A DNA stretch of 46,538 nucleotides from a virus (taxonomy: Duplodnaviria; Heunggongvirae; Uroviricota; Caudoviricetes). The translations under genes and the position numbers were made by a program. The notes under the pieces were generated by a model. That model was not told the DNA's origin. It saw only the letters and a program-made list of their open reading frames with translations, and did no database searches. The stretch lies in the IMG/VR virus record IMGVR_UViG_2879754190_000005; one strand, 5' to 3'. Of the stretch, positions 13,965 through 18,525 are shown one piece after another (within the stretch, counting starts at the first letter, position 1; each line of letters begins with the position of its first letter).

Positions 13965-14041
13965 GGCCCTTTAGCTCAGTTGGTCAGAGCGAGCGACTCA
14001 TAATCGCCAGGTCGCTGGTTCAAGTCCAGCAAGGGCCACCA
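13965..14041 (+). tRNA. tRNA with CAU anticodon (Ile2-type or Met)
   Basis: Cloverleaf with 7-bp acceptor stem GGCCCTT/AAGGGCC, anticodon loop CTCATAA, T-loop TTCAAGT, encoded CCA; resembles E. coli ileX from memory. Confidence 0.8.
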
Positions 14042-14042
14042 A

Positions 14043-14119
14043 CCACCACTAGCTCATCCGGATAGAGCATCAACCTTCTAAGTTGACGGTGCGAGGTTCG
14101 AGTCCTCGGTGGTGGGCCA
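14043..14119 (+). tRNA. tRNA-Arg (UCU anticodon)
   Basis: Acceptor CCACCAC/GTGGTGG, anticodon loop CTTCTAA, T-loop TTCGAGT, CCA end. Confidence 0.8.
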
Positions 14120-14121
14120 GC

Positions 14122-14197
14122 GCCGACTTAGCTCAGCAGGCAGAGCAACTGACTTGTAATCAGTAGGTCACCAGTTCGATTCCGGTAGTCGGCACCA
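14122..14197 (+). tRNA. tRNA-Thr-like (UGU anticodon)
   Basis: Acceptor GCCGACT/AGTCGGC, anticodon loop CTTGTAA, T-loop TTCGATT (one A-C mismatch in T stem), CCA end. Confidence 0.65.
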
Positions 14198-14200
14198 TAT

Positions 14201-14275
14201 GCGGGCATCGTATAATGGCTATTACCTCAGCCTTCCAAGCTGATGATGCGGGTTCGATTCCCGCTGCCCGCTCCA
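14201..14275 (+). tRNA. tRNA-Gly (UCC anticodon), glyT-like
   Basis: GCGGGCATCGTATAATGGCTATTACCTCAGCCTTCCAAGCTGATGATGCGGGTTCGATTCCCGCTGCCCGCTCCA; clean cloverleaf, anticodon loop CTTCCAA. Confidence 0.85.
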
Positions 14276-14389
14276 TGACCTTTCTTAAAGTACTCCAACC
14301 TACTGAATCCTAAGGGATACGGCTTTAAGCCTCCTTGCAGAGTTACTTACTGTAACCCACTGTGTAACCCTCTCAGGGCATGCAGACAT

Positions 14390-16226: not shown

Positions 16227-16322
16227 AGGGACACAAAAGTTTTCTCTTCTAGGATGACACTTACTACAGACCTGTGTGGTCATGTTTTTGACTCATGGTT
16301 TTCTCTACTTGTCAAGGATAAT

Positions 16323-16345
16323 TAATACGACTCACTATAGGGAGA
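16323..16345 (+). promoter_or_regulatory. T7 RNA polymerase promoter match, copy 3
   Basis: TAATACGACTCACTATAGGGAGA, 23/23; +1 G at 16340. Confidence 0.8.
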
Positions 16346-16538
16346 AGGGACACAAAAAGTTTTCTCTTCTAGGACAACTAACCGTAACTTATCGCATCCT
16401 TTCAGGGGCGGGATGACCAATTACAGACACCAAGCGTTCTACTTAAAGTGAATGCTTCCTGTGTGCTCTGGGTCAGTCGATAAGTGAATAGCAATAAGAC
16501 ACAATCATCTTAATTATGGTCTCTAGTCCCTACAGGGG

Positions 16539-16742
16539 CTTAACTTAAAGTTAACTTAAAGACACAATTAAAGATTAACTTATAGTATTACTTAAAGTTA
16601 ACTTAAAGACACAATTAGAGATTAACTTTAAGTATTAAATAAAAGATTTAATTAAAGACCAATTAAAGATTAACTCTAAGGGAATACCTTAAGGGGTGAT
16701 GATATTTATAATAATCAATCACCAAACCTATAGGTCTTCTCT
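16539..16742. repeat. AT-rich tract of TTAACTTAAAG-type short direct repeats
   Basis: CTTAACTTAAAGTTAACTTAAAGACACAATTAAAGATTAACTTATAG... repeated as two imperfect units of about 52 bp, then further TTAAAG variants; no ORF of 60 aa or more on either strand. Confidence 0.7.
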
Positions 16743-17989
16743 TGAAGTGGCACACTGAATTTGGCCACCTGAACAGAGGTGATATGCTCACCTCAGAACA
16801 ACACAGGTGCTCCAATGAAAAAAAGAAATTTTAGCGCAGAGTTTAAACGCGAATCCGCTCAACTGGTTGTTGACCAGAAATACACGGTGGCAGATGCCGC
16901 CAAAGCTATGGATGTTGGCCTTTCCACAATGACAAGATGGGTCAAACAACTGCGTGATGAGCGTCAGGGCAAAACACCAAAAGCCTCCCCCATTACCCCG
17001 GAACAAATTGAAATCCGTGAGCTCAGGAAAAAGCTACAACGCATTGAAATGGAGAATGAAATATTAAAAAAGGCTACCGCGCTCTTGATGTCAGACTCCC
17101 TGAACAGTTCTCGATAATCGGGAAACTCAGAGCGCATTATCCTGTGGTCACACTCTGCCATGTGTTCGGGGTTCATCGCAGCAGCTACAGATACTGGAAA
17201 AACCGTCCTGAAAAACCAGACGGCAGACGGGCTGTATTACGCAGTCAGGTACTTGAGCTACATGGCATCAGCCACGGTTCGGCCGGAGCAAGAAGCATCG
17301 CCACAATGGCAACCCGGAGAGGCTACCAGATGGGACGCTGGCTTGCTGGCAGGCTCATGAAAGAGCTGGGGCTGGTCAGCTGTCAGCAGCCGACTCACCG
17401 GTATAAACGTGGTGGTCATGAACATGTTGCTATCCCTAACTACCTTGAAAGGCAGTTCGCCGTGACCGAACCAAATCAGGTGTGGTGCGGTGATGTGACC
17501 TATATCTGGACGGGTAAGCGCTGGGCGTACCTCGCCGTTGTTCTCGACCTGTTCGCAAGAAAACCAGTGGGCTGGGCCATGTCGTTCTCGCCGGACAGCA
17601 GGCTCACCATGAAAGCGCTGGAAATGGCATGGGAAACCCGTGGTAAGCCCGGCGGGTGATGTTCCACAGCGATCAGGCAGTCATTATACGAGCAGGCAGT
17701 TCCGGCAGTTATTGTGGCGATACCAGATCAGACAGAGTATGAGCCGGCGCGGAAACTGCTGGGATAACAGCCCAATGGAACGCTTCTTCAGGAGTCTGAA
17801 GAACGAATGGATGCCGGTGGTGGGTTACGTAAGCTTCAGCGAGGCAGCTCACGCCATAACGGACTATATCGTTGGATATTACAGTGCACTAAGACCGCAC
17901 GAATATAACGGTGGGTTACCCCCAAACGAATCGGAAAATCGATACTGGAAAAACTCTAACTCGGTGGCCAGTTTTTGTTGACCACTTCA
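16743..17989 (+). mobile_element. IS911 copy B with 3-bp target duplication TCT
   Basis: IRL TGAAGTGGCACACTGAATTTGGCC at 16743, IRR ...GTTGACCACTTCA to 17989; TCT at 16740-16742 and 17990-17992; orfA 16779-17117 (A6G slippery site present), orfB broken at ...GKPGG. Confidence 0.9.
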
Positions 17990-18210
17990 TCTAGGGTCTC
18001 TCTATAGGTCTTCTCTATGGTCTCTCTATAGGTCTCTCTAGGGTCTCCTCTAGGCATTACCCCCAGAAGCTAACTCTATGGCCCTCTATGGTCCTCTATG
18101 GCCCTGTACGTCATTCTTTAGGATGCCCTGTAGTTTCGTATAGCCTGATGCCTAGAGAGACCCTAGAGAGACCCTAGAGAGACCCTAGAGTGGCTCCTAG
18201 AGAGACCCTC
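17990..18210. repeat. Iteron-like arrays with inverted symmetry (TCTCTAGGG / TCTCTATAGG units and their reverse complements)
   Basis: 17990-18053 GGTCTCTCTATAGG/TCTCTAGGG units; 18075-18105 CTCTATGGCCC x3; 18151-18210 CCTAGAGAGACC x4 on the opposite strand sense; continuous with ...CCTATAGGTCTTCTCT at 16725-16742 across the IS911 insertion. Confidence 0.7.
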
Positions 18211-18369
18211 CCAGTAGCTCCGCACAGCTACATCGTCATCATCATAGTATTCAATCTCAAAGTCATTCTGTTTGCATCCTGTTGTCCTGCTGGTCTCCCT
18301 TCGCTTGGGGACTTTGAGTAGGTCAGTGGGGGTGCGACTTCAGGGTGCAAACAAAAAGGAAATCAAGCG

Positions 18370-18525
18370 ATGTCTCAACAACCACAACAACCACAACAAG
18401 AAATCAGCATCATTAACCTCGACCAGCTTGTGTCCATGACCTCAGTTGAAATTGCTGAGCTGACAGGCAAGGAGCACCGAAATGTCCTTCGTGATATTCG
18501 TAAGATGCTCGAAGAACTTAACGCG
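18370..18525 (+). pseudogene. Rha/Ant-family phage regulatory protein, N-terminal stump truncated by IS1
   Basis: ...LVSMTSVEIAELTGKEHRNVLRDIRKMLEEL matches the Rha/antirepressor N-terminal motif; the last 9 codons and stop come from the IS1 terminus. Confidence 0.55.

Follow-up and report, generated by a model that had tools for sequence, protein, structure and literature searches.

What are three exact promoters of bacteriophage T7 doing directly behind a tRNA-targeting integrase gene, within the remains of a lambdoid prophage? The question is raised by positions 13,965 to 18,525 of the IMG/VR virus record IMGVR_UViG_2879754190_000005 (Caudoviricetes), a stretch of 46,538 nucleotides that is called "the window" throughout this text. 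An original prediction, made from the sequence letters, described the layout of this locus as tRNA-Gly(UCC), a 114-bp spacer, a 534-aa recombinase, a triplet of T7 promoters, repeats, and a Rha-like open reading frame (ORF), and it offered three explanations: a satellite that relies on the RNA polymerase and replisome of a T7-group helper phage, a phage-sensing cassette, or the stump of a T7-like prophage. Each of the listed features is real and lies where it had been placed, although an IS3-family insertion sequence (IS) among the repeats had been overlooked. Our comparison with related sequences suggests, with a probability of about 0.68, that the region is an inactivated copy of an integrative element that parasitises T7-group (Studiervirinae) phages, i.e., a phage satellite.

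Promoters and integrase of the window copy

To our knowledge, exact T7 promoters are not expected in bacterial chromosomes. The window carries three plus-strand copies of the exact 23-mer TAATACGACTCACTATAGGGAGA, at 16083-16105, 16204-16226, and 16323-16345, all with zero mismatches. No other site in its 46.5 kb comes within three mismatches of this sequence, and the number expected from 100 shuffles was zero. All three copies equal the consensus from -17 to +6, which in sequence terms defines a T7 class III promoter, and the same 23-mer stands at six positions of the T7 genome, annotated as phi6.5, phi9, phi10, phi13, phi17, and phiOR. When the downstream bases are included, phiOR is the best match among the T7 promoters, the window copies being 84-86% identical over 42-45 bp. 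The copies are embedded in a plus-strand tandem repeat (16007-16374) of 3.1 units of 121 bp that are 95% alike, with one promoter per unit, and relatives of the locus have one to three copies of the promoter-bearing repeat. Sigma-70-like sites in the region were not above chance.

The gene upstream of the promoters (14390-15994, plus strand) encodes an apparently intact integrase of 534 aa with the HxxR and Y motifs. The profile search that the original prediction had proposed for classifying it matched PF00589 (E 2e-17, 63.9 bits against a cut-off of 27.1) and, weakly, DUF6538. A PF00589 score above the gathering threshold, together with the 23-bp direct repeat of a tRNA end that flanks intact relatives, identifies the protein as a tyrosine recombinase. 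A database protein named from Shigella flexneri (P0001) is identical to it, and relatives with 83-97% identity are spread across Enterobacterales.

Complete relatives

A megablast search of 5,426 complete Escherichia coli genomes found the stretch of integrase plus repeats in 381 genomes and the promoter and origin-like module alone in 91. In E. coli this module is always chromosomal and always unannotated, and lies at the glyU site adjoining actS. Intact versions with a right attachment (att) site, for which the original prediction had recommended a search, were recovered as att-bounded relatives of 4-6.5 kb. In E. coli FT130, the tRNA 3' end TTCGATTCCCTTCGCCCGCTCCA is repeated 4,276 bp downstream and thereby bounds a unit; such units measure 4,042-4,296 bp in FT130 and four further E. 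coli strains, with a 23-bp direct repeat at both ends, and 4.4-6.4 kb in Klebsiella, Enterobacter, Buttiauxella, Proteus, and others. The relatives are self-contained and att-bounded, and did not turn out to be lambdoid prophage segments devoid of T7 elements.

The E. coli units share one order, namely the integrase gene, short repeats, one or two exact T7 promoters, the conserved block and AT-rich array also found in the window, a KilA-N gene, one gene for either a small membrane protein or a protein of 157 aa, and finally attR. In FT130, the promoter and first transcribed bases are 82% identical over 50 bp to T7 39209-39258 (phiOR). The nearest relative of the window copy is in strain 21AR0133, where the integrase DNA is 94% identical and the element occupies 7.3 kb including an IS5; its Rha gene is followed by genes for a 67-aa protein, a DUF6971 protein, and a 373-aa protein. 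With 4.0-6.5 kb and at most one capsid-fold gene, the complete elements are too small to form a virion of their own.

FT130 also has a stretch (locus L002, 17717-17770) of three copies of AATCAATACGA ending in CAATACGACTTACTAATAGGAGA. This stretch, which the window copy lacks, resembles a degenerate promoter that has gained one base. Islands can be stacked in tandem at tRNA-Gly: in 21AR0133, a second, different integrase follows the element (L001, 22343-32390), and the regions upstream of several other loci (L015, L021, L022, L027, and L030) show a degenerate att core preceded by other island DNA.

Promoter types across hosts

A scan of one genome per species identified 17 loci with this integrase outside E. 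coli, in Klebsiella, Lonsdalea, Rouxiella, Enterobacter, Citrobacter, Buttiauxella, Shimwellia, Kluyvera, Proteus, Pectobacterium, Serratia, Edaphovirga, and other genera. They were searched with a generic T7-group promoter pattern, for which the chance rate was estimated at about one match per 260 kb per strand. One to four matches were present in 14 of the 17 loci, on the plus strand and just past the integrase gene or the gene next to it (e.g., RAZR, discussed below), and no match was found on the minus strand of any of the 17 loci (approximately 240 kb). The three loci without a match either end within 1 kb of the integrase gene, at a contig end, or have a broken integrase gene. The original prediction had named a lack of connection between integrase and promoters in other genomes as grounds for rejecting it; the two are linked wherever the locus is neither truncated nor disrupted. 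Every complete member of the family has one to four promoters for a single-subunit phage RNA polymerase behind the integrase gene and in its orientation, and after them come the conserved block, AT-rich repeats, (G/T)GGTC repeats, a structured leader, and a gene for a DNA-binding protein (Rha, KilA-N, or Ant-like).

The promoter core CACTATAGGGAGA is constant, and the upstream specificity region varies with the host. Klebsiella pneumoniae has AATTAGGGCACAC; Citrobacter, Enterobacter, and Buttiauxella have CTTAACTATCAC and AATAACCCCTCAC; Proteus and Kluyvera have AATTAACCCACAC; Shimwellia has ATGAGACCCACAC; and there are several further types. In a phage database, the K. pneumoniae type matches 371 Klebsiella phages, with about 10 sites per genome. 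The type of Citrobacter, Enterobacter, and Buttiauxella is found in Kayfunavirus phages that infect Citrobacter, Enterobacter, Cronobacter, and E. coli, and it carries a promoter annotation there. In many of these genomes the best site is the promoter nearest the right end, at a distance of no more than about 1 kb. The T7 type matches phages of Escherichia, Yersinia, and Salmonella. Judged by these matches, the promoter types of the elements are real phage promoters.

Since the exact 23-mer is also the commonest synthetic promoter in laboratory vectors, contamination by a cloning vector, or a fortuitous look-alike of a T7 promoter, has to be considered. This explanation is scarcely credible: the three copies are part of a natural 121-bp repeat, 91 of the 5,426 complete E. 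coli genomes have the module in one and the same chromosomal position, and other genera have promoters for other phage polymerases in the same position.

Four promoters with three specificities are found within about 560 bp in K. pneumoniae ATCC 13883 (L014, 7036-7612): two of the Klebsiella type, one exact T7 promoter, and one of the AATTAGGTAGCAC type. This arrangement suggests that the element may be able to respond to several helpers.

Origin-like DNA

A T7-type replication origin consists of one or more T7 promoters followed by an AT-rich region with sites for the gene 4 primase, as in the primary origin at phi1.1A/1.1B and the secondary origins at phiOL and phiOR. The window shows candidate counterparts, namely the tandem promoters, a stretch with a GC content of 0.27 about 200 bp downstream, and an enrichment of primase pentamers; the similarity of this stretch to T7 DNA is weak. 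Directly after the last promoter, a conserved non-coding block (16375-16540, plus strand) is 77-91% identical to relatives in E. coli, Klebsiella, and metagenomic sequences, the flanks of which have diverged. It is followed by an AT-rich array of TTAACTTAAAG/TTAAAGA repeats (16540-16675, plus strand; GC 0.27), a candidate for the unwinding part of a T7-type origin, and by a palindrome, GGTGAT...ATCACC with an AT-rich centre (16695-16723), that has a T7 counterpart, GGTGATTATATTGTATTAGTATCACC, at about position 39330. Array and palindrome show weak similarity (z 3.8-5) to the T7 sequence that follows phiOR.

Short tandem repeats of the (G/T)GGTC type occupy 17990-18210, with copies on the plus strand at 17990-18052, CTCTATGGCC at 18074-18105, and a GGGTC array on the minus strand at 18151-18209. 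These repeats weakly resemble those to the left of the T7 right terminal repeat (z 2-3). Pentamers recognized by T7 primase are enriched four- to fivefold in the non-coding DNA of E. coli and Shigella elements (z 6-11; 9.0 in the window) and less strongly in that of other genera (z 1-5), statistics that are inflated by the tandem repeats. Across nine diverse elements, TGGTC has the highest ratio of all pentamers (3.9-fold); in the window, GGGTC and GTGTC are enriched as well as TGGTC. A protein-binding role for the pentamer repeats is as plausible as primase sites. FT130 has about 13 tandem copies of GCGATGACCATAG just past the integrase stop codon (L002, 16768-16930), each with TGGTC on the minus strand, and in other elements this pentamer is the core of different repeat units.

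Between the palindrome and these repeats, the window copy is interrupted by the IS3-family insertion (16743-17989, plus strand), which is probably IS911-like, judging from its OrfA and ends. It is flanked by a 3-bp target duplication (TCT) and is foreign to the element, as the DNA is uninterrupted in relatives. Its transposase frame is broken into several ORFs.

A leader hairpin of about 87 nt (18262-18348, plus strand; folding free energy, dG, -40.9 kcal/mol, z -3.3) directly precedes the first cargo gene. Hairpins of about 90 nt occur in leaders of at least four sequence types (L001, L033, L036, and L024 among them), with six pairs showing compensatory changes; the two types that fold best reach a dG of -41 to -55 kcal/mol (z -3.3 and -6.8), and z is -3.7 and -1.3 in two others. 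Speculatively, the leader hairpin might be an RNase III site as in T7 transcripts, given its position, or a translational control element. In an Rfam search of the non-coding DNA, the tRNAs were the only matches and the leader hairpin had none. The class II pause signal of T7 polymerase, ATCTGTT, looked for by eye near the junction motif described next and in the leader, was represented by near-misses only.

A sequence-level mimic of the T7 packaging site

About 250 bp before attR, the FT130 element contains a segment that aligns over 71 bp with T7 39743-39810, spanning the start of the right terminal repeat. T7 reads ...AAAAATCTGAGTGACTA/TCTCACAG...TTCCCCCATA, and the element reads ...AAAAATCTCAGCGTCTA/TCTAATAG...TTCCCCCATA. 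The local alignment score is 29, compared with 11.5 +/- 1.5 in shuffled sequences (z about 12). A search of a phage collection with this segment from two element subtypes gave weak matches only, mostly to T7-group phages at their genome ends, such as LL2, IME15, KFSA9, Ebrios, and fPS phages, some of them annotated as "right terminal repeat". When T7, fPS-59, LL2, IME15, and three element types are aligned, CA.AAAAATCT, TAT.T.A.AG, and CCCCC.TA are invariant in all seven. Of 11 complete elements, 10 have the motif, in short form AAAAATCT...TATCTAATAG, at a constant distance of about 250 bp from attR, and a short ORF for a membrane protein, placed like T7 gene 19.5, comes before it. The relatives would accordingly possess a putative helper packaging signal, a hallmark of satellites that has been lost from the window copy, and the elements appear to hold both T7 cis functions, origin and junction, side by side.

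This likeness to the right end of T7-group genomes (a phiOR-type promoter, the palindrome, and the junction motif) and the genuine truncation of the window copy are also what might be expected of the third explanation in the original prediction, the stump of an integrated T7-like prophage, in which the integrase and one genome end of a temperate T7 relative survived and the rest was lost to IS elements. This explanation fails because T7 genes are absent from complete elements. Between their two att sites, such relatives measure only 4.0-6.5 kb, and a scan of complete elements found no gene for RNA polymerase, DNA polymerase, portal, terminase, or tail proteins, nor for gp8, gp10, or gp19. Moreover, the capsid-fold protein of the larger members matches no phage genome in the collection. 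We consider a prophage stump to be highly improbable.

Cargo genes and RAZR

The first cargo gene of the window copy is a Rha-family gene of which only the first 52 codons remain (18370-18525, plus strand; PF09669, E 1e-9) before it is cut by an IS1; full-length Rha relatives have 233-253 aa. The first cargo gene of an element is always DNA-binding, of the Rha, KilA-N, or Ant type. In the 6-kb members, it is followed by genes for a protein of 60-80 aa, a DUF6971 protein with a charged helical tail, and a protein of 326-402 aa; the DUF6971 protein and the last one are encoded by most members of the family. The last of these is an HK97-fold capsid protein, identified solely by structure comparison: it had no match in Pfam, PHROGs, and PDB sequence searches, its hhalign probability against T7 gp10 was 0.1, and tblastn against 50,697 phage genomes found nothing. 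Pfam and PHROG scans of the cargo yielded Rha/Ant-like, KilA-N, DUF6971, and DUF4145 matches alone, and no AlpA, primase-replicase, or terS.

A stable hairpin, ACCCUUGGAGG...CUCUGAGGGU, with a U-rich run directly follows the capsid-fold gene at 4727-4754 in L033 and at about 6040-6090 in L041, and can be likened to T7 T-phi, which follows gene 10. In four IMG/VR contigs predicted to be viral (L037-L040), relatives of the capsid-fold protein with 34-36% identity are encoded 1-3 kb upstream of tRNA-Cys, and these contigs may represent a comparable family that uses a different tRNA, in other bacteria.

Many relatives also encode a full-length homologue of RAZR (PD-T7-4), with a zinc ribbon and DUF4145 (HEPN); the match in a Klebsiella element has an E of 8e-99. 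The gene precedes the promoters, in overlap with the end of the integrase gene (L014 6397-7029; also L017, L019, L022, L031, and L041), and neither the window copy nor the E. coli 4-kb elements have it. RAZR is an abortive-infection RNase activated by T3/T7 portal rings (PMC13017515), and Vassallo et al. remarked only that PD-T7-4 "often overlap[s] an integrase gene" (PMC9519451). Since RAZR lies upstream of the promoters and is missing from the window copy and the 4-kb elements, it is not the part of the element that the promoters drive.

Free or tandem forms

An ENA contig (L033, positions 1-6628; ERZ27247387 k141_403532) has an exact terminal overlap of 141 bp, which corresponds to a circle or tandem unit of 6,487 bp. 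In this and two other metagenome assemblies (L034 and L035), the capsid gene, junction motif, and integrase gene occur in permuted order with no host flank. The three contigs (from ERZ27247387, ERZ23216721, and ERZ23140466) belong to a sister lineage; the L033 integrase is 28% identical to that of the window, and no tRNA-like att core was recognized in L033. Two integrase contigs of 4.3-4.4 kb (P0089 and P0074) were rejected as excised circles, being chromosomal with host flanks present, as was L041, which simply breaks at the att repeats.

Satellite or defence cassette

From the anatomy and conservation of the elements, the matching of promoters to hosts, the junction homology, and the capsid fold, we infer a cycle of induction, replication, packaging, and transfer, with possible interference with the helper. 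Upon infection, the RNA polymerase of the helper would fire the element promoters, and transcription into the AT-rich region would prime replication by the phage replisome, as at T7 origins. The cargo would be expressed from the same helper-polymerase transcripts. Helper terminase would then cut the amplified concatemers at the junction mimic and package them. The 6-kb members would go into capsids built with the capsid protein that they encode, and the 4-kb members would enter heads of helper size as multimers. The integrase would then insert the element at tRNA-Gly of the next cell. Of the explanations first offered for the locus, this agrees with the T7-group-dependent integrative element that uses the RNA polymerase and replisome of a helper, a proposal to which the att-bounded relatives with integrase, phage promoters, origin-like DNA, and packaging mimic lend support at the level of sequence.

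Several observations weigh against a satellite. The AT-rich and GGTC regions are only weakly T7-like (z 2-5), and the enrichment of primase pentamers is inflated as noted above. The complete elements encode no terminase, portal, or replication initiator. The capsid-fold protein has no sequence kinship to gp10 or to phage genomes, and thus gives no sign of assembling together with T7 parts. RAZR, present in many members, is lethal on meeting the T7 portal and sits awkwardly with a dependence on T7 heads. Tandem chromosomal arrays are as plausible an origin of the circular-looking contigs as free circles, since tandem islands are known at tRNA-Gly and could mimic circular junctions in assemblies. 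Finally, an exact-pattern search of JGI metagenome contigs and IMG/VR did not find an attP junction of the tRNA-Gly type, a negative that is weak because enterobacterial viromes are probably poorly represented in those collections.

Some of these points would be explained if the locus were a phage-sensing defence cassette, the second of the explanations first proposed. The promoters would then switch on the cargo in infected cells only, the origin and packaging DNA would serve as decoys for replisome and terminase, the capsid-like protein would poison head assembly, and the integrase would account for arrival only. The absence of a detected attP junction fits this explanation, as do a weak match of the KilA-N cargo to PD-T4-2_B (E 4e-5) and, above all, the presence beside the integrase in many relatives of RAZR/PD-T7-4, a proven anti-T7 abortive-infection RNase (PMC13017515, PMC9519451). 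However, the RAZR gene precedes the promoters, and both the window copy and the E. coli 4-kb elements lack it. A decoy also needs no intact integrase, no conserved att arms, and no junction motif fixed near attR in 10 of 11 elements, and the permuted contigs without host flank are not expected of it. We regard a pure defence cassette as unlikely, though it is the main rival. The two readings overlap, because satellites usually interfere with their helpers, and a phage-sensing function may coexist with a satellite, given that many relatives carry RAZR/PD-T7-4.

Returning to the satellite reading, we lean slightly towards extending it to the whole group, in that Enterobacterales may hold an unrecognized family of 4-6.5 kb satellites of virulent T7-group phages. 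Its members would combine promoters for the helper RNA polymerase, a helper-type origin, and a junction mimic, some with a capsid protein of their own and RAZR, and their promoter specificities would have diversified to match the local phages.

Relation to known systems and significance

Phage satellites as such are known, but the element family described here is apparently undescribed. A full-text literature search found no natural element with promoters for a phage RNA polymerase and no satellite of T7-group phages, although many subscription papers lay outside its coverage and an earlier description is possible. The closest parallel is a laboratory one. Chung and Hinkle (J Mol Biol, 1990) reportedly showed that plasmids with a T7 origin and concatemer junction were replicated and packaged by T7 as multimers of about 40 kb. 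Like the element, such plasmids combine a T7 promoter and AT-rich DNA with the boundary of right end and terminal repeat in a small unit that needs multimer packaging. Unlike these constructs, the element is natural and has an integrase, an att site, cargo, and promoters that vary among genera.

Among natural systems, VEIMEs are likewise small (<5-17 kb) integrative satellites with an integrase that lack most structural genes (PMC9618062), and concatemers of 8-17 copies are packaged in full-size helper heads (PMC9618062). VEIMEs were found in particles and their hosts are marine bacterioplankton, whereas packaging of the element is proposed from its sequence (PMC9618062). In addition, no major capsid genes were identified in VEIMEs and the word "promoter" is absent from the main text of that paper (PMC9618062). 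Capsid-forming phage-inducible chromosomal islands (cf-PICIs; cf. SaPIbov5 Ccm) are about 10-15 kb long and encode a whole head module with a small terminase, compared with one capsid-fold protein and a possible scaffold (DUF6971) here. The gene set of PICIs and cf-PICIs (int, alpA, stl-like repressor, primase-replicase, terS, and head module) was not found in the element cargo by Pfam and PHROG.

P4 and PLE share the logic proposed for the element, including integration in or near a gene, awakening upon helper infection through a transcription factor made by the helper, helper packaging signals, and interference with the helper, and PLE provides a precedent for a satellite of a strictly virulent phage. 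They have no homology to the element, however, and encode replication initiators of their own, whereas activation of the element would be direct, via promoters for the helper RNA polymerase, and its replication would use a helper-type origin. The RAZR/PD-T7-4 system represents one passenger gene of the family, and the passages that describe it mention no element, promoters, or capsid gene (PMC13017515, PMC9519451).

T7 is among the best-studied phages, yet we found no description of a satellite for the T7 group. If our reading is correct, the elements would sense their helper in a new way, through helper-polymerase promoters without a repressor or inducer protein, and would be a natural counterpart of the classic T7 origin-plus-junction plasmids. 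The family could also account for the frequent position of the anti-T7 gene RAZR next to an integrase gene. Strictly lytic podophages, which are in wide use for phage therapy of E. coli, Klebsiella, Yersinia, and Citrobacter, would be predicted to transfer genes, and the host-matched promoter sets could record which T7-group phages a lineage has met.

The window copy and its surroundings

The window copy is a relic, split by the IS3-family insertion and truncated by an IS1, that has kept its integrase gene, promoters, and most of the origin-like DNA. On its left side, the attL core is the tRNA-Gly 3' end TTCGATTCCCGCTGCCCGCTCCA (14253-14275, plus strand), which differs from the E. coli chromosomal glyU core at 3 of 23 positions. 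The adjoining left arm (14276-14389, 114 bp, plus strand) is attP-derived, contains TGTAACC-type repeats, is 84-94% identical to that of E. coli elements, and is kept in all relatives. On its right side, an IS1 end (GGTAATGCTGCCAACTTACTGAT..., 18526-18560, plus strand) interrupts the Rha gene at the junction 18525/18526. As originally proposed, the distal part and attR were lost there: a search of the window past the junction found no more element DNA, and the missing portion comprises the remaining cargo, the packaging-site mimic, and attR. Because of these losses, the window copy is immobile now.

The tRNA genes next to the element form a plus-strand array of Met(CAT) (13965-14041), Arg(TCT) (14043-14119), Thr(TGT) (14122-14197), and Gly(TCC) (14201-14275), identified by ARAGORN and by tRNA matches in Rfam. 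The 3' end of tRNA-Gly, its last gene, was used for integration, in line with the tRNA-targeting layout noted in the original prediction. The array is borne by the surrounding lambdoid prophage, so the target was a phage-borne tRNA-Gly rather than the chromosomal glyU. Upstream of the array, the prophage context includes a DnaC-like gene, DUF1367, a Q antiterminator gene (9753-10322), and an ORF6N gene (13109-13756), and tail-fibre genes of the prophage are found downstream of it. The lambdoid prophage around the array (9753-14275) is itself riddled with IS elements, and the satellite-like element is thus nested within a prophage.

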